Positions 7,768-14,964 of a stretch of DNA of 64,000 nt are shown here, piece after piece. A program made the translations under genes and the position numbers. How positions within the stretch are numbered: the first letter of the stretch is position 1; each line of letters starts with the position of its first letter. This DNA comes from Escherichia phage BF15, in sequence record MW822007.1; one strand, written 5' to 3'. A model generated the notes under the pieces. That model did no database searches. It was not told the origin of the DNA and was given only the letters and a program-made list of their open reading frames with translations.

Positions 7768-8732
7768 TGTATTCTTTAGAGGAATTTAATAATCAAGCAA
7801 TAAACGCAGATTTCCAACGTAATAATATGTTTAGCTGTGTTTTTGCGACAACTCCATCAACTAAAAGCTCTTCGTTGATAAGTTCAATTAGCAACTTTTC
7901 TTATAATAACTTGGGTCTAAATTCAGATTGGTTAGGATTGACTCAAGGCGATATTAATCAGGGAATTACCACGCTAATTACAGCTGGCACACAAAAACTG
8001 ATAAGAAAATCAGGAGTTAGTAAATATCTTATTGGTGCCATGAGTCAACGTACAGTTCAAAGTTTATTAGGCTCATTTACAGTTGGTACATATTTAATTG
8101 ACTTCTTTAATATGGCATATAACTCATCTGGATTGATGATATATTCTGTAAAAATGCCAGAGAATAGATTATCCTATGAAACTGACTGGAACTATAATTC
8201 TCCTAATATTCGTATAACCGGGAGAGAATTAGACCCTTTGGTTATTTCATTTAGAATGGATTCAGAGTCGTGTAATTATCGTGCAATGCAAGACTGGGTT
8301 AACGCTGTTCAAGACCCAGTAACTGGATTACGCGCTTTGCCACAAGATGTCGAGGCAGACATTCAGGTTAATCTTCATGCTCGTAATGGATTACCTCATA
8401 CTGCTGTGATGTTCACCGGATGCATTCCAGTGTCAGTGAGCGCTCCTGAGTTATCATATGATGGAGATAACCAAATAACTACATTTGATGTTACTTTTGC
8501 GTATAGAGTCATGCAGGCTGGAGCAGTTGATAGACAAGCTGCGCTTGAATGGCTTGAATCCGCTGCTATAAACGGTATTCAAAGCGTTCTCGGAAATAGC
8601 GGAGGCGTTACTGGACTATCTAATTCGCTTTCACGACTTAGTAGATTAGGAGGAACTGCTGGAAGCATTTCAAACATTAATACTATGACGGGAATTGTCA
8701 ACTCGCAAAGTAAAATATTAGGAGCAATATAA
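7767..8732 (+). CDS. 54: Baseplate-tail tube initiator gp54
   Basis: 321 aa (T4 about 320); overlaps gene 48 stop. Confidence 0.9.
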   Translation: MYSLEEFNNQAINADFQRNNMFSCVFATTPSTKSSSLISSISNFSYNNLGLNSDWLGLTQGDINQGITTLITAGTQKLIRKSGVSKYLIGAMSQRTVQSLLGSFTVGTYLIDFFNMAYNSSGLMIYSVKMPENRLSYETDWNYNSPNIRITGRELDPLVISFRMDSESCNYRAMQDWVNAVQDPVTGLRALPQDVEADIQVNLHARNGLPHTAVMFTGCIPVSVSAPELSYDGDNQITTFDVTFAYRVMQAGAVDRQAALEWLESAAINGIQSVLGNSGGVTGLSNSLSRLSRLGGTAGSISNINTMTGIVNSQSKILGAI

Positions 8733-8734
8733 CA

Positions 8735-8760
8735 ATGGGGACCGAAAGGTCCCCATATTT
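8735..8760. terminator. Bidirectional hairpin terminator between convergent gene 54 and the 96-aa ORF
   Basis: GGGGACC-GAAA-GGTCCCC followed by ATATTTTTATTT. Confidence 0.55.
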
Positions 8761-9051
8761 TTATTTACGGAATGAAATAAAAGCAGCAACTGAAGCAACT
8801 AAACTGTCTTCAATATAAACTTCAATTTTTACCGGAGCTTCTGACTCAAATTTACCTGTTACTACACCTTGGAAAATGCTTTCAGTCTGTTCTGGCTTTG
8901 AAAAATTTTCAGAAGGAAAAATTCCGAACTTTTTATCTGTTCCAAAAATTTTGATAAATTCATCATAAACTGCTTCATTAAAAGCGTTATCAGCAGGAAT
9001 AACGCCTTCAACTACAAGTTCTTGACCTAAAAAGCGCAAAGAAGATTTCAT
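8761..9051 (-). CDS. Hypothetical protein, 96 aa
   Basis: Track ORF preceded by GAGG Shine-Dalgarno and an early promoter. Confidence 0.6.
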   Translation of the reverse strand: MKSSLRFLGQELVVEGVIPADNAFNEAVYDEFIKIFGTDKKFGIFPSENFSKPEQTESIFQGVVTGKFESEAPVKIEVYIEDSLVASVAAFISFRK

Positions 9052-9082
9052 TTTGTGTTCCTCATGTTATGTCAGTAAGTCT

Positions 9083-9112
9083 ACTATAACACAACACGAG
9101 GGACTTGTAAAC
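9083..9112 (-). promoter_or_regulatory. T4-type early promoter (GTTTAC-N18-TATAGT); part of a 53-nt block repeated at 24487..24539
   Basis: Minus strand GTTTACAAGTCCCTCGTGTTGTGTTATAGT. Confidence 0.6.
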
Positions 9113-11169
9113 TACATCTTGAACTTTTTAGACATTCCATTGATGTTAACCAAAGAAGCCAAGATTTGAGAAACTTCGTTTTCCTCTTCTTTTGATTCTT
9201 CTACAAGGAATTGATTAAACCCAGCCATTGGACGAACTTCACCAGTTTCCATTAGATGGTCGCCATCATATACCGATTCTTCTAATTGTTCAGAAGGAGG
9301 AACGATTGTGCCTTCGATTAGATACTTGTTATAAGCAGTTTCTTTCATCATGTACGTACTCACTTTATTAATCTTCAGCAAAATTCCACGTGGTAAAATA
9401 ACTTCAGCTTCTGATGGAAATCCTGATAAATGTCCTGGAACGATAACTTTGATTCGCTCAGCTCCTTTAATTACCATACCCACGCTAGTTTCAGCATCTT
9501 CATTGGCATACGCAGAATGACTACCCATATGCATTAAATCTTCAGCGTCAACAGAACCTTCTCCTTCACCAGAAAATACTGCACCGGAATCATCTAGAGC
9601 CATATAGTTTTTACCATACTCACCGAAGATATTTGGTTTAAGCGATGTGGATACGAAGTTCTTGAAGTAGAACATTTTATTTTCAATATTATGACGTAAA
9701 GTTTTAAAGGTAACTTCTTGTCCACGGTAAAGTGTAGTTCCTGGAGGAAGAACTGATCCTTTGGCAAAGGCAGAATCCATTGTCTCGATGTGTTTAATAG
9801 CTCGTTCCATATATTCTTCACGGGTAGAATCCGGTTTACCTAAAAGGAATGAGTTCATTTCAACATATGAATCTGCACAATAATCTTCAATTACATCAGA
9901 CTCAGCCTGAGTTAATCCTTTTGGAGTTACTTCAGTACTTGCATATTCATACGCTTGAGAAGCAGACTCATTAATCAATTTATAAACGCCATTCATGACA
10001 AATTGAACAATAGCTACCTTTTCATCTGGTGTGGCTTTAGAACCTTTAACTAAATCATTGACAATTTTCTTAATAACATCAAAGCTATTAGAAATATTAA
10101 TGTCAGCAAGATCACTTAAAATTTTATCAGTTTTATAATCAAAAAATTCTTTATTCTTTAAATATTCTTGAGAACCTTGATATGATATATCGCTCTGTAA
10201 CTTGATAGATGGATCACGTAAACGCGCATGAGCCAATGCAATATGATTTCGGAAGCTTTCTAATTCATAATCACTAGATTTAAAACGGGAAGCACTCCTC
10301 ATACCACCGATAGCTCCTTTGCTGAAGTTTGAACCAACCTGAATAACGCCAGAGTTCATTGGTCCTTCTGCTTTATATACCGGAACTTTAGATTCAAACT
10401 CTTGATATTTCTTAGCAGCGAAGCTATCACCCTGAAGTGAAGCATCGACAGTAGAGTATTGAGCTTGTGCTGCTAATCGACGACTAATTTTAGTTTTCTG
10501 AATAACAGCTTGATCCGTGCGCTTATCATTTTCTAAAGCAATAGAAGCAGCAACAGCGACAGCTTTAGGAACAGCATTACCTGTTTTAACGTCTACATAA
10601 ACATCACCAACCTTTGATTCAACTTTTGTGAATAACTCAGTTGAAATAGGAGGTACACCTGGAATGTCTTCTAAATTAGCATTTTTACGGTAAACCATAA
10701 TATATGCGTACTTTTTATCGTAATCCCAGATTTCCTTTAAAAGAACATATCGACCTGCTCCTTTAGTACGTACTAAACGGTCGGCAATAACTTGCATTTG
10801 ACGAGCTGCACCATTTGTTTTACTCTTTAGTACGCGGAATAAGCATGCGTCAATTTTATACTGTTTCATTGTTTGAAGAGCAGTATCAAAAACGGCATTA
10901 ATGACGCCAATTGGATTTCCACCTAAGTTTTTAAGTTTAACTAATGATAGTTTCTCATTAACACCTATCATTACGATATGCATCATTTTATCGCCTGGCT
11001 TAACGTTTTTATTTGTATCACCGCCAGAGGTGTATGTACAAAATCTAAATCCAGGAAGCACACTTTCTTCGCCTGCTTGAATAGCAAAAATTTGAGGTAT
11101 TTTATGCTTAGGATTTAAGTTAACAACCGGCGCCGAAGCGCCGTCAAATAATTCTGTAATAAGTTCCAT
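9112..11169 (-). CDS. Alt-like ADP-ribosyltransferase, tandem paralog (685 aa)
   Basis: Shares the MELITELFD N-terminus, CTYTSGGDTN, MHIV and FYFKNFVSTSL...EAEVILPRG (R-S-E ART motifs) with the adjacent alt gene. Confidence 0.8.
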   Translation of the reverse strand: MELITELFDGASAPVVNLNPKHKIPQIFAIQAGEESVLPGFRFCTYTSGGDTNKNVKPGDKMMHIVMIGVNEKLSLVKLKNLGGNPIGVINAVFDTALQTMKQYKIDACLFRVLKSKTNGAARQMQVIADRLVRTKGAGRYVLLKEIWDYDKKYAYIMVYRKNANLEDIPGVPPISTELFTKVESKVGDVYVDVKTGNAVPKAVAVAASIALENDKRTDQAVIQKTKISRRLAAQAQYSTVDASLQGDSFAAKKYQEFESKVPVYKAEGPMNSGVIQVGSNFSKGAIGGMRSASRFKSSDYELESFRNHIALAHARLRDPSIKLQSDISYQGSQEYLKNKEFFDYKTDKILSDLADINISNSFDVIKKIVNDLVKGSKATPDEKVAIVQFVMNGVYKLINESASQAYEYASTEVTPKGLTQAESDVIEDYCADSYVEMNSFLLGKPDSTREEYMERAIKHIETMDSAFAKGSVLPPGTTLYRGQEVTFKTLRHNIENKMFYFKNFVSTSLKPNIFGEYGKNYMALDDSGAVFSGEGEGSVDAEDLMHMGSHSAYANEDAETSVGMVIKGAERIKVIVPGHLSGFPSEAEVILPRGILLKINKVSTYMMKETAYNKYLIEGTIVPPSEQLEESVYDGDHLMETGEVRPMAGFNQFLVEESKEEENEVSQILASLVNINGMSKKFKM

Positions 11170-11172
11170 GAT

Positions 11173-13266
11173 TTATCCTTGAACGAACTTGTAAGGCATG
11201 TTTGCAATATCTATGCAAGATGCAATAATTCCAAGAGATGATTCTACTTTTTGTTTAACATTTGATGAAACAAATGATGCAAAGTCAACTCTGTCTTCTA
11301 TTTCAATATCACCTGTCATTGCAACTACTTCGCCGGTTTCCATTAGACGGTCACCGTCATAAATTACTGATTCGGTGAGTTCTTCCGTAGTCATAACTTC
11401 AGCTTGAATGAGTTTTGTATTATTAGATGTTGTTCCGTCATTATTAGAAGCATCAGTTATTTTATTAACTTTGACCATCAATCCGCGTGGTAGAATAACT
11501 TCAGCTTCTGTTGCTATTCCGAGACTTCCTGGATATACAACATTAACTTTATGAGCTCCATCAATTGCCCATCCTATTTGAACTTTAACGTATTCAGGAT
11601 TTTCTTTATACGCTCTTATTTCGTTTGGATTAATAGTTATTCCTTCTTCATTTTTATCAACTGTCAATTCATTACGAGCTTCTGGTTCTAAAAGACCAAT
11701 ACCAGCATGTGTAATTCCAAAACGTCCAAAAATGATAGGAGTTAAAGAAGTAGATACAAAATTTCTGAAATAGAACACTTTATTTTTAACTAGTGCTTCG
11801 TATATAGGAGCAGTCATGCTTTGAGCACGATAAACTGTAATGCCTTCTGGTATACGGTCACCATTTTCAAAAGCTGAATCTAAATTATTTATCGCAGATT
11901 CAATTTCTTTTTCACTCATTACATCATATCGTTCTGGATTGTAGCGGCCTAAAAGAAGATTATTGATGTCAGTATATCCTGATCCACAATACTCTCTAAT
12001 GCCGCGCTTTTGCGATGGAGTATATTTAGAACCATCACGGGCAATAGTAATATCAATCATTGGACCTGCACCAATTCCAGAAAAGCTATAAATCATTCGT
12101 TTGAGGAATTTAGTTTTTGCTGCGTTCCAGGAATTTTTAGTTATTTCTTCCCAGACTTCATCTGGCTGCCCTTTACGAGTTTTATTATGTTTATCAAGCC
12201 AATTATCTTTATATTCTTCAAAGAATTTATTAACAGCTGCTGCGTATTTCTCTAAACATTTTATTGAAGTAGTTGGTTCATTTTTGATCGCGTTAAAAAT
12301 TACATCTTTAATTTTTTCAGAAACTTCATCAACCTCACTTTTTGGAAAGAATTTATAGTCATAGTGAAGTTCATCTGCGGTTCCTTCGGCAATGATTTTT
12401 GCTGCCTTAGTTTTAGAAGCTAATGAATTAATTCCAAGCTTCATTTCTTCTGCTTCGGGAATTAAAGGAGCAGTAGCAGGTTTATTGAAATTAGCTGCAG
12501 TAGATTCATACTTCTGGAATAATTCGCTTTCAAATCTAGAAGATTCTAATGATTGACTTTGCGCAATTGCTCTACGGGAAATTTTAACTTTAACAATAAC
12601 AGCTTGGTCAGAACGTTTATCGTTTTCTTGCGCAATAGATGCTGCAATTGCCTCATTTTTAGTTACTTGAGCTCCAGTATCTTTATTGATATAAACATCG
12701 CCGACTTTCGATTCAACTTTAGTAAAGAGCTCGGTACTAATTTCTGGAACTCCTGGAATGTCTTCTAATGATACATTTTTGCGATGTATAAGAATATATG
12801 CATACTTTTTATCGTAATCCCAGAGTTCCTTAAGAAGGACGTATCTGCCACCTGAACGACTACGGATAAGTCTATCAGCAATAACTTGAATTTGTCGAGC
12901 TTGACCAGCAGTTTTAGACTTAAGAATACGAAGCATGCAGGCATCAATTTTATACTGACGCATCGTTTGCATCGCAACAGTAAAAACTGAATTGATATAA
13001 TTAATTGGGCTTGGACCGAGACCTTTTAATTTAGCAATTGAACCTTTAGCAGTTAATGTAAAAGGAACAATATGCATCATTTTATCGCCCATTTTTAAAT
13101 CACGGTTAGTATCACCTCCAGATGTATAGGTACATAAACGAAAGCCTGGTTGTTCAATTGCGTCATCGACATGAACTGAAAAAATTTGTGGTATTTTCTT
13201 CTTTGGATTTAAGTTTGTAATCGGAAGAGTAGTATCTTCGTCAAATAATTCTGTAATAAGTTCCAT
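11173..13266 (-). CDS. alt: Alt ADP-ribosyltransferase (capsid-packaged)
   Basis: 697 aa from second Met; MELITELFDEDTTLPITNLNPKKKIPQIF N-terminus; STS and EAEVILPRG motifs; adjacent to gene 30. Confidence 0.85.
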   Translation of the reverse strand: MELITELFDEDTTLPITNLNPKKKIPQIFSVHVDDAIEQPGFRLCTYTSGGDTNRDLKMGDKMMHIVPFTLTAKGSIAKLKGLGPSPINYINSVFTVAMQTMRQYKIDACMLRILKSKTAGQARQIQVIADRLIRSRSGGRYVLLKELWDYDKKYAYILIHRKNVSLEDIPGVPEISTELFTKVESKVGDVYINKDTGAQVTKNEAIAASIAQENDKRSDQAVIVKVKISRRAIAQSQSLESSRFESELFQKYESTAANFNKPATAPLIPEAEEMKLGINSLASKTKAAKIIAEGTADELHYDYKFFPKSEVDEVSEKIKDVIFNAIKNEPTTSIKCLEKYAAAVNKFFEEYKDNWLDKHNKTRKGQPDEVWEEITKNSWNAAKTKFLKRMIYSFSGIGAGPMIDITIARDGSKYTPSQKRGIREYCGSGYTDINNLLLGRYNPERYDVMSEKEIESAINNLDSAFENGDRIPEGITVYRAQSMTAPIYEALVKNKVFYFRNFVSTSLTPIIFGRFGITHAGIGLLEPEARNELTVDKNEEGITINPNEIRAYKENPEYVKVQIGWAIDGAHKVNVVYPGSLGIATEAEVILPRGLMVKVNKITDASNNDGTTSNNTKLIQAEVMTTEELTESVIYDGDRLMETGEVVAMTGDIEIEDRVDFASFVSSNVKQKVESSLGIIASCIDIANMPYKFVQG

Positions 13267-13289
13267 CATATCCTCTCTAGTGTTTATTC

Positions 13290-13297
13290 TATTTATA
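13290..13297 (-). promoter_or_regulatory. Late promoter (TATAAATA) upstream of alt
   Basis: Minus strand TATAAATA about 25 nt upstream of the alt start. Confidence 0.5.
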
Positions 13298-13302
13298 AAA
13301 TT

Positions 13303-13322
13303 AAAGGCCCGAAGGCCTTTAA
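13303..13322 (-). terminator. Tetraloop hairpin (GGCC-CGAA-GGCC) with T-rich tail
   Basis: aaaggcccgaaggccttt; minus strand hairpin followed by TTTAATTTTAT. Confidence 0.45.
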
Positions 13323-13507
13323 TAATCTAGTGGTAAGAGAGTACGATATATTTCAAACTTTGGCCCTTTTTCATAGGCATCAAATGTTTCTGTAAATTTA
13401 TTATAAGCATATGCATCTACAAATTCGAGAACGATTTGTGATACAGAAGTAGAAACATCTCCACCTTCTTTTTGAGCCACGACAATTGTTTCTAAGTAAG
13501 CTTTCAT
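13319..13507 (-). CDS. Hypothetical protein, 62 aa
   Basis: Track ORF; start overlaps the ligase stop. Confidence 0.5.
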   Translation of the reverse strand: MKAYLETIVVAQKEGGDVSTSVSQIVLEFVDAYAYNKFTETFDAYEKGPKFEIYRTLLPLDY

Positions 13508-14964
13508 AAACCAGTTACCTCATGAAAATCACCAAATACATCCTCAAATGTATTAGCTTTAGTTTTATCTTCACGTAAACGAATCGCAATCGGAAGAAAT
13601 AATTTAACGTAATCAGTGCGGCCATCAGATTTTAACCAACCATTGCATTCGCACTCTAGAATTTTTCCAATATAATAATTTTGGTTTTCCATAATGCGAG
13701 TACGGTCAAGTTCATGTGATTTTACGCCAGCTTTATCTTTTAAGCCTGAACCTGCATTTACTTTAATTTTTCCACACTCTGATTCAAGAATAAATCCACC
13801 CGCTTTAGTAGGGTCTTTACGGTGAGGATAAATTCCTACAATTTTTAAATCAACATCAATTACTTCTTTAAATTTATAAAGATTTTTTGAACGAGCATTT
13901 TCCCACAATCCATCGATATTTTTGAGAATAATACCTTCAAGACCTTGGTCAATATACTTTTTATAAATTACCTTAGCTTCATCTAGGTTATTTACTACCT
14001 GGTTTTCAATTAAAATTACTTTATCATATCCTGATGTCATTTGTTCTAGTTTAGAAAAACGTACATCATATTTTAAACGAAACGCCGGAAGACCGTATAT
14101 TTCTACCAACGGAACATAATCCCAGACCTGAAACTTCATGCATTTGGCTTCTTTTTCTGAAATAGTTCCCTTTAAAGATTTATTGGCGATTCCATTAGAA
14201 GCAGTACGAGATTCAGCTACTTCGGCAAACTCTTTAGCTTTACTATTTTCAGGAGCATCAAAAAGAAAATCTAGGCCTTCTGGTTCCTTTTCAACTTGCT
14301 CATGGTATACCAATTCGCCATCGATTAACACGCCTTCTGGATGAATCTGGCGGGCTTCAGCAGTCATTTTGATTAACTCTTCCTTAAGAAGATCTAATCC
14401 TAGGTATTCATTGCCAGCTCGTGATAAAAGACGAACATCATCTAATTCATCACCTCTGACTTCAGCAAAACACCGAGCTCCATCTGCTTTTAACTGCGCA
14501 AAAGCTGGAAACTTGATATTCTTACTAATGCCTTTTTCATCATAAGAACTTGCCAGCATTTGAGGTTGTTCAGGAATTAAACCTGGCCAAACTTTGTTTG
14601 CAATAGATACTGAAGCACCGCATTCAAGGTCTCGCATCATAACTCGACGCAAAACTTCAACATCATCCTTTTTACCATCGGTGATATATCCAGTTAATTC
14701 CTCAATTGCTGCATTGCCAGTTAATTTCCGAGTAGCTAACGTAAATTCAATAAAGTCAAGCATATCGGTAATAGTCAGCATTCCAAAACTCTGGGTAGCA
14801 ATACCAGGTTTAGGCCATTTCTTGATATAATACTGTAACCCACGAGAATAAGTCAGACGATATACTCGTTTAAGCAATTCATTATTTTTATTCTTTTCAA
14901 GAATTGCTTGCTTCTGTTTAGTTGATCCAATAGATGCTATTTCATTCAGAATTTTAAGAATCAT
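13504..14964 (-). CDS. 30: ATP-dependent DNA ligase gp30
   Basis: 486 aa; KADGAR adenylation motif; matches recalled T4 ligase. Confidence 0.95.
   Translation of the reverse strand: MILKILNEIASIGSTKQKQAILEKNKNNELLKRVYRLTYSRGLQYYIKKWPKPGIATQSFGMLTITDMLDFIEFTLATRKLTGNAAIEELTGYITDGKKDDVEVLRRVMMRDLECGASVSIANKVWPGLIPEQPQMLASSYDEKGISKNIKFPAFAQLKADGARCFAEVRGDELDDVRLLSRAGNEYLGLDLLKEELIKMTAEARQIHPEGVLIDGELVYHEQVEKEPEGLDFLFDAPENSKAKEFAEVAESRTASNGIANKSLKGTISEKEAKCMKFQVWDYVPLVEIYGLPAFRLKYDVRFSKLEQMTSGYDKVILIENQVVNNLDEAKVIYKKYIDQGLEGIILKNIDGLWENARSKNLYKFKEVIDVDLKIVGIYPHRKDPTKAGGFILESECGKIKVNAGSGLKDKAGVKSHELDRTRIMENQNYYIGKILECECNGWLKSDGRTDYVKLFLPIAIRLREDKTKANTFEDVFGDFHEVTGL

Follow-up and report, generated by a model that had tools for sequence, protein, structure and literature searches.

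Tandem alt and alt2 genes for Alt-type ADP-ribosyltransferases in Escherichia phage BF15, and the remnant of the second gene in T4

Are two adjacent genes for Alt-type ADP-ribosyltransferases (ARTs) peculiar to one phage lineage, or is it T4, with its single intact alt gene, that departs from the general T-even arrangement? The question is raised by Escherichia phage BF15 (sequence record MW822007.1), of which a stretch of 64,000 nucleotides (nt), here called the window, was analyzed; the genome it comes from is T4-like (Tequatrovirus). A first-pass annotation, made from the sequence alone, had reported two adjacent minus-strand open reading frames (ORFs), and these could be confirmed exactly in length and position: alt, the ortholog of T4 gpAlt, encodes 698 amino acids (aa) at 11173-13269 (minus strand), and alt2, corresponding to alt.-1/alt.-2 in T4 nomenclature, encodes 685 aa at 9112-11169 (minus strand). 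Both lie between gene 54 and gene 30, as T4 alt does. The analysis established gene structure, homology, catalytic residues and protease-site conservation for this locus, together with purifying selection, the distribution of the pair and how the T4 deletion came about. The tandem alt-alt2 pair is the ancestral, majority and already annotated T-even state, from which T4 is derived by deletion.

Distribution of the pair and loss of alt2 in T4

Many T-even phages of Escherichia, Shigella and Yersinia match the 4.9 kb around the pair at 97-98% identity. An Alt2-type central segment is present in 445 records, 401 of them at ≥90% identity and the other 44, of a Dhakavirus type, at ~48%. The second gene is already annotated in some of these phages, under differing names: T2 calls its downstream copy alt.-1, the RB14 annotation reads “alt.-2: Alt-like RNA polymerase ADP-ribosyltransferase,” and phage KarlGJung (Bas37) lists the pair as Alt (bas37_0033) and Alt2 (bas37_0032, “ADP-ribosyltransferase Alt2”). 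The window proteins are 99.3% identical to bas37_0033 and 98.5% identical to bas37_0032, the latter at equal length and position, and the Alt2 of Bas37, RB14 and T2 is the downstream copy with no material difference from that of the window. Among T4-like phages, Nolan et al. (2006; PMC1524935) listed alt.-1/alt.-2 as well as duplications of the full-length alt.

T4 (NC_000866) encodes one full alt of 682 aa, followed by the small ORFs alt.-1 and alt.-2 (NP_049810 and NP_049809), which its RefSeq record labels “an old duplication of the first part of gene alt.” These two ORFs match codons 1-56 (alt.-1) and 62-116 (alt.-2) of alt2 at 95% and 98% identity, respectively, and Alt at only 56-62%; they share their flanks with the window alt2, including the early promoter of alt.-3, but represent a remnant only. 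Relative to the window DNA, T4 lacks 1 nt of an A-run, a frameshift which separates alt.-1 from alt.-2, and a segment of ~1.69 kb (9132..10821 of the window) which is bounded by the 9-bp microhomology CTAAAGAGT / CTAAAAAGT; with this segment go the remainder of the N-terminal module of Alt2, its center, its ART domain and the greater part of its propeptide. The deletion junction was found in 91 records, and the deleted segment itself in at least 401 phage records at 93-99% identity, including T2, RB5, RB14, wV7 and HP3. In phage sutha alt2 was lost independently, by another deletion: a 38-aa stub (L006 4481-4597), equivalent to the last 38 residues of Alt2, lies beside a 696-aa alt of the T2 type.

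The first-pass annotation had described T4 as having a single alt gene. That T4 has one intact alt is correct, but it also keeps the alt.-1/alt.-2 remnant of the second, and the implied novelty of the pair is not upheld given the at least 401 records with the full pair, T2 and RB14 among them, and the names Alt and Alt2 in Bas37. Comparison with T4 at the 54-alt-30 locus showed essentially the same two genes, the second one as a remnant. As a genomic observation the pair adds little: both RefSeq and the BASEL collection already list it, and the remnant has been noted since the annotation of the T4 genome.

Paralogy and modular layout of Alt and Alt2

Alt and Alt2 are 41% identical over their full length (BLASTP E 1e-158), far beyond chance, as would be expected of the tandem, diverged paralogs that the first-pass annotation took them to be. 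The similarity is distributed by module. The N-terminal module (about residues 7-238) is 67% identical, the ART domain 37% and the C-terminal tail 45%, whereas the central ~190 residues are 16-18% identical, with no similarity detectable between the two central modules (hhalign probability ~1%; BLASTP E>0.1); in an alignment of 21 sequences, the stretch from residue ~238 to ~427 lacks any invariant column. Both proteins carry the motifs MELITELFD, CTYTSGGDTN, MHIV, QYKIDAC, GRYVLLKE and STELFTKVESKVGDVY in the shared first ~230 residues, and both carry FYF-NFVSTSL, EAEVILPRG and DGD-LMETGEV. The shared N-terminal region and the unrelated-looking centers reported at first are thus borne out; the shared C-terminal catalytic region holds for the ART domain, but DGD-LMETGEV, which had been counted with it, lies downstream of the mapped T4 site for the gp21 protease (see below) and therefore belongs to the C-terminal propeptide.

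In Alt (minus strand, as are all features of the two genes), the N-terminal propeptide (M)MELITE (13249..13269) ends at a gp21 site, I-T-E. It is followed by an N-terminal alpha/beta module (12556..13248; residues ~8-238), in which the AlphaFold2 model places strands and helices at residues 17-195 with a predicted local distance difference test (pLDDT) score of mostly 70-87; by a variable central module, all-helical in the model (12034..12555; residues ~239-412); by the ART catalytic domain (11371..12033; residues ~413-633); and, after the site L-T-E, by the C-terminal propeptide (11176..11370; residues 634-698), which contains YDGDRLMETGEV. The layout of Alt2 is the same: the propeptide MELITE with its gp21 site I-T-E (11152..11169), the N-terminal alpha/beta module (10462..11151; residues 7-236), an all-helical central module specific to the Alt2 lineage (9925..10461; residues 237-415), the ART catalytic domain (9277..9924; residues 416-631) and, after the site L-E-E, a C-terminal propeptide (9115..9276; residues 632-685) containing YDGDHLMETGEV.

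The two AlphaFold2 models (mean pLDDT ~74) have a common layout, in the order alpha/beta N-terminal domain, all-helical center, ART beta-core and disordered C-terminal tail. The predicted central helices run in closely parallel order in Alt and Alt2 and end in one long helix leading into the ART domain, and central modules are near-equal in length (197, 192 and 189 aa). Each model aligns over its full length with the Alt of the distant phage SP18, with template-modeling scores of 0.61 and 0.38 that are dominated by inter-domain orientation. Among the matches in BFVD are “split” Alt proteins of distant T4-like phages (Acinetobacter phages ZZ1 and Henu6, Citrobacter phage CF1 and Aeromonas phage 50AhydR13PP), in which one ORF encodes the N-terminal part and another the ART part; these fit with separable modules. 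The precomputed Pfam annotation of all full-length homologs lists a second family, PF26846, presumably the N-terminal module, which the Pfam scan of the window did not report for Alt or Alt2.

ADP-ribosyltransferase identity and catalytic residues

Both proteins match Pfam family PF03496 (ADPrib_exo_Tox) well above its gathering threshold of 23.4 bits, Alt with 129.9 bits (E 1e-37) and Alt2 with 73.2 bits (E 2.4e-20). They also match PHROG 802 (Alt-like RNA polymerase ADP-ribosyltransferase) over essentially the full profile (Alt, residues 1-697 to profile positions 1-674 of 674, E 5e-273; Alt2, residues 1-685 to positions 2-674 of 674, E 4e-255); neither protein has an NCBIfam model. In both proteins the catalytic Arg, the S-T-S and the E-x-E (ARTT) motif occur in the right order: R481 (11827-11829), S506-T507-S508 (11746-11754) and E588-A-E590 (11500-11508) in Alt, and R482 (9724-9726), S507-T508-S509 (9643-9651) and E587-A-E589 (9403-9411) in Alt2. 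As first proposed, these residues are kept in both copies; they are invariant columns in the 21-sequence alignment, and all three motifs are kept in 115 of the 118 full-length homologs.

To our knowledge, no structure of an Alt protein has been solved. In a sequence comparison with PDB chains, the Arg and the E-x-E of Alt align with those of CdtA/iota Ia in a weak match, and Alt2 gave nothing at E<=0.01. With Foldseek, the Alt2 model matched Vis toxin (4xzj; E 3e-8) and then C3bot, CDTa, VIP2 and Certhrax, all with probability 1.00, and the Alt model matched models of Alt-family ARTs in BFVD. The predicted fold is thus of the C3/VIP2 type, as seen in models of moderate confidence (pLDDT ~74), and the phage enzymes have a variable insertion of ~75 residues between S-T-S and E-x-E. 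Judging from the E-x-E motif, Alt and Alt2 are probably of the arginine-specific type. T4 Alt ADP-ribosylates the alpha subunit of RNA polymerase and other host proteins (cited in PMC5512222, PMC9503650).

Head-protein processing signals

T4 Alt is present in virions (~40 copies) and is ejected into the host (PMC9958956, PMC9026906). By mass spectrometry, gp21 was shown to cleave it after ITE-6 and LTE-619, which removes 63 C-terminal residues (PMC5694885; also PMC9026906). Both sites have counterparts in the window proteins: the I-T-E of MELITE stands at the start of Alt and Alt2, its Glu (E6 in Alt2) being invariant in the 21 homologs, and the L-x-E sites L631-T-E633 of Alt and L629-E-E631 of Alt2 align with LTE-619, again with an invariant Glu. 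Downstream of the L-x-E site the motif YDGD..E.GE is also invariant. The AlphaFold2 confidence drops exactly at the C-terminal gp21 site, with pLDDT <50 from residue 653 in Alt and at residues 629-633 and 642-685 in Alt2. The C-terminal propeptides of Alt and Alt2 (~55-65 residues) are acidic, and cleavage at both ends would reduce the full-length proteins of ~76-78 kDa to predicted mature forms of ~70 kDa (Alt) and ~69 kDa (Alt2). Ali et al. raised the possibility that the propeptides control the activity of Alt (PMC5694885). The N-terminal capsid-targeting region that the first-pass annotation saw in both copies is accurate as regards the ITE-6 signal, but the known signal consists of the short N-terminal peptide together with the C-terminal propeptide, not of the whole ~230 residues (PMC5694885, PMC9026906).

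A shared late operon

A T4 late-promoter box, TATAAATA, lies at 13290..13297 (minus strand), ~20 nt upstream of the alt start, and is followed by the Shine-Dalgarno sequence GAGAGGA; the box occurs once on the minus strand within 8600-13800, and the stretch comprising late promoter and Shine-Dalgarno sequence is conserved in T4, T2, RB14 and JoYop. Consistent with this, T4 alt is a late gene (PMC9697503). The ATG of alt2 lies 3 nt past the stop codon of alt, with its Shine-Dalgarno sequence AAGGA inside the end of alt; given the shared late promoter and this spacing, alt and alt2 form one late operon.

The start of alt is a tandem ATG ATG (13264-13269, minus strand), identical in T4, T2, RB14 and JoYop, and its annotation varies, with 698 aa in Bas37 and 697 aa in T2 and RB14. 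ITE-6, the T4 numbering of the gp21 site, points to the second ATG as the start; the 698 aa first given for Alt are thus correct for the ORF, but by the T4 convention, from the ATG at 13266, the protein has 697 aa.

Age of the duplication and diversity of alt alleles

Dhakavirus dhabil has the order ligase, alt.1, ART, ART, alt.-3, gene 54, and its two ART genes correspond in order to those of the window: the upstream copy resembles Alt (center 65%, ART domain 84% identical) and the downstream copy Alt2 (center 46%, ART domain 57%). This ordered, one-to-one orthology places the duplication before the split of Tequatrovirus and Dhakavirus. In line with such an age, alt and alt2 are saturated at synonymous sites (synonymous divergence, dS, 1.1-1.4).

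The N-terminal module shows a different pattern, in that paralogs within a genome are 65-67% identical and orthologs between the genera only 42-46%. Four Alt2 proteins in the databases (P0003, P0004, P0006 and P0007) have N-terminal modules 76%, 85%, 93% and 98% identical to that of the window Alt, with centers and ART domains that are 96-99% Alt2, and these N-terminal segments look like gene-conversion tracts between the tandem paralogs. Taken together, the similarity of the paralogous N-terminal modules and the Alt-like segments suggest gene conversion, co-evolution with a shared genome-specific partner, or both.

The alt gene proper exists in Tequatrovirus as two old alleles, the T2 type of the window and the T4 type. 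The T2-type allele was found in 318 records, and includes a DNA cassette (12030-12460) absent from T4. Between the two types dS is saturated (1.0-1.5) over the center and ART domain, against 0.10-0.27 in the flanking modules. The comparison of T4 gpAlt (NP_049811) with the window Alt reflects this: the two have an equal genomic place, late promoter, upstream hairpin, catalytic triad and both gp21 sites in common and are 70% identical overall, 100% in the N-terminal module (residues 7-236) and 95% in the C-terminal propeptide, but only 33-37% in the central module and 67% in the ART domain. Initial MAFFT windows (14-35% identity) had suggested unrelated cassettes even among orthologs; this was dropped, since hhalign detects the homology of the Alt and T4 Alt centers (99.9%; 37.5% identity), and they are better described as old, diverged alleles. 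Three body types were seen in Tequatrovirus. Boundaries of the alt alleles lie near residues 240 and 630. The T2-type ART domain of the window is nearer to its Dhakavirus ortholog (84%) than to T4 Alt (67%), despite an N-terminal module identical to that of T4, and JoYop has a T4-type alt beside an intact alt2. A delivery module evolving in concert, joined to old and diverged effector bodies, makes for a tidy, incremental example of injected-effector diversification.

Maintenance of alt2

Among the window, T2, RB14 and JoYop, alt2 has a ratio of nonsynonymous to synonymous divergence (dN/dS) of 0.03-0.05 at dS 0.20-0.34, with no module above 0.13, and the Alt2 protein cluster at 90% identity has 772 member sequences. 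By these measures alt2 is a maintained gene under strong purifying selection, not a decaying one, and Alt2 a strongly conserved, apparently active and probably injected enzyme. A search for an Alt2 function, target or phenotype found none in the searchable literature; Alt2 has escaped study, in our view, because the model phage T4 deleted it.

Functional data exist for Alt. According to a recent preprint (10.1101/2025.11.20.689424), T4 Alt helps the phage to evade Mokosh type I and restores growth against it, whereas Bas37 Alt, the near-identical counterpart of the window Alt, does not; the Alt alleles are therefore functionally non-equivalent by this complementation. The same HIDEN-SEQ preprint finds bas37_0033 to be conditionally important on clinical isolates (10.1101/2025.11.20.689424). 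Given the difference between alleles against Mokosh type I, Alt2 and the T2-type Alt are reasonable candidates for host- or defense-specific functions.

Proposed role of the operon and alternative explanations

We consider it highly probable that the locus is a standard T-even late operon, alt-alt2, for two Alt-type head proteins acting as host-directed ARTs with probably distinct targets, which arose by an ancient duplication and lost its second gene in T4. Under this model the late promoter would drive two translationally adjacent genes, each for an internal head protein of ~76-78 kDa composed of a 6-residue propeptide, a ~230-residue alpha/beta module, a ~180-residue helical module, an R-S-E ART and an acidic C-terminal propeptide. 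Alt and Alt2 would be made late, built into the prohead, trimmed by gp21 at both ends, ejected with the DNA, and would modify arginines of host proteins by mono-ADP-ribosylation within the first seconds after infection; for Alt2 we infer packaging, processing, injection, arginine specificity and distinct targets. Alt and Alt2 most likely have different target sets, which would stem from their differing helical modules and ~75-residue ART-loop insertions. The effector bodies have diverged beyond synonymous saturation since the old duplication, while gene conversion, a shared packaging partner or both probably keep the N-terminal module similar within each genome; T4 and its close kin lost alt2 through the frameshift and the microhomology deletion.

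Several points weigh against this model. Alt2 has no promoter of its own, and its expression depends on read-through from alt; the assignment of arginine specificity has the E-x-E motif and the similarity to Vis/C3-class enzymes as its whole basis; the AlphaFold2 models reach only moderate confidence (pLDDT ~74); and alt2 has been lost at least twice, in the T4 lineage and in phage sutha, which shows it to be dispensable on some hosts. In addition, no virion proteomics, activity assay or knockout phenotype was found for the Alt2 of any phage, and bas37_0032 goes unmentioned in the text of the HIDEN-SEQ preprint (10.1101/2025.11.20.689424).

The single intact alt of T4 might be taken to mean that the duplication is recent, lineage-specific and novel relative to T4. 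We give this a negligible probability and rejected it on the T4 remnant (95-98% identical), the at least 401 carriers, T2 and RB14 among them, and the one-to-one orthology in Dhakavirus, with which the saturated dS of the paralogs agrees. It is extremely improbable, too, that alt2 is a decaying or non-functional duplicate on its way to the T4 state: the deletions in the T4 lineage (91 records) and in sutha and the lack of a reported phenotype would fit, but dN/dS is low in every module, hundreds of genomes carry an unbroken 685-aa ORF, and the triad and both gp21 sites are invariant and have been conserved since before the genera split. The pseudogene reading was rejected on the low dN/dS and the conservation across genera.

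The remaining alternatives concern what Alt2 does and where its center comes from. An active Alt2 that is not packaged or injected, serving as a late analog of ModA/ModB in the producing cell, or that is packaged yet modifies phage or head components, would agree with its late expression, with the absence of Alt2 virion proteomics from the literature found, and with the propeptide control of Alt activity raised by Ali et al. (PMC5694885). We nevertheless regard this as unlikely, as Alt2 keeps MELITE, an N-terminal module 67% identical to that of Alt and a C-terminal propeptide with L-x-E, all features of the incorporation and processing of Alt in the head, and its N-terminal module changes in concert with that of Alt, suggesting a shared partner. 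A better case can be made for the Alt2 center being a foreign, non-homologous module swapped in, rather than an Alt center diverged in situ: neither sequence nor profile comparison relates the two centers, no column between residues ~238 and ~427 is invariant, and cassette-like boundaries also occur between the alt alleles. The nearly equal lengths of the centers, their all-helical build with parallel helix order and a long final helix into the ART domain, the full-length alignment of both models with SP18 Alt and the full-length match of both proteins to phrog_802 argue otherwise, so that a swap, while possible, is doubtful. An extension of the late-operon model can be offered tentatively: Alt2 may be a second injected arginine ART that its helical and loop modules direct to host targets of its own, plausibly an anti-phage defense component, and the locus a “warhead” system with a homogenized delivery module and interchangeable effector bodies. 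In that case the loss of alt2 may contribute to differences in host range or defense sensitivity between T4 and T2-like phages.

Relation to other ADP-ribosyltransferase systems

Alt and Alt2 share the catalytic fold and the R / S-T-S / E-x-E residues with the R-S-E toxins of PF03496 (C3-like, VIP2, iota/CDTa and Vis), at identities below 21%. Unlike these toxins, the phage proteins have a ~410-residue N-terminal extension, two propeptides removed by a protease and the variable ~75-residue insertion; they are delivered, in the case of Alt2 probably, from the phage head, the toxins by a B-component or a secretion system. T4 ModA and ModB are likewise phage-encoded members of the R-S-E ART clade acting on host transcription and translation proteins (PMC5512222, PMC9503650), but they are early proteins of ~200 residues, made after infection and not packaged, with no counterpart of the N-terminal, central or propeptide modules. 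Polymorphic toxins and MuF-fused effectors resemble Alt and Alt2 in combining a conserved N-terminal module with diverged or exchangeable C-terminal bodies, in having several alleles per locus and in recombining at the module boundary. The Pfam scan of Alt and Alt2 gave no match to a MuF domain, and the likeness is one of logic, not of membership.

Neighboring genes and other expression signals

Upstream of alt on the minus strand lie alt.1 (13319-13507; 62 aa) and gene 30, the DNA ligase gene (13504-14964); downstream of alt2 lies alt.-3 (8761-9051, minus strand; 96 aa), which matches Pfam DUF5498 (E 1e-64). Genes 48 and 54, on the plus strand, face the minus-strand alt cluster. alt.1 has a full-length match to Pfam PF24647, “Phage blade protein” (E 1e-29).

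A GC-rich hairpin read from the sequence, AAAGGCC-TTCG-GGCCTTT followed by AATTTT (13303..13320, minus strand), overlaps the stop codon of alt.1. It is identical in T4, T2, RB14 and JoYop, and is probably a terminator separating alt.1 from the alt operon; Nolan (2006; PMC1524935) noted a conserved terminator upstream of alt. The terminator scan missed this hairpin because its T-run is short. Overall, the scan of the region for sigma-70 and terminator consensus sites showed no enrichment over shuffled sequences, and only two of its sites look meaningful, an early-promoter-like site of alt.-3 and a bidirectional hairpin between gene 54 and alt.-3. The former is a sigma-70-like TTTACA-17-TATAGT (9111->9083) directly downstream of the alt2 stop codon, an early-type promoter of alt.-3; the alt.-2 reading frame of T4 continues into this promoter sequence. 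Mutations that extend the C terminus of T4 Alt.-3 allow escape from the CmdTAC defense by blocking degradation of CmdA (PMC11618068). The second site, at 8735-8756 between the convergent genes 54 and alt.-3, has a perfect, GC-rich 9-bp stem with T-runs on both strands and is probably a bidirectional terminator.

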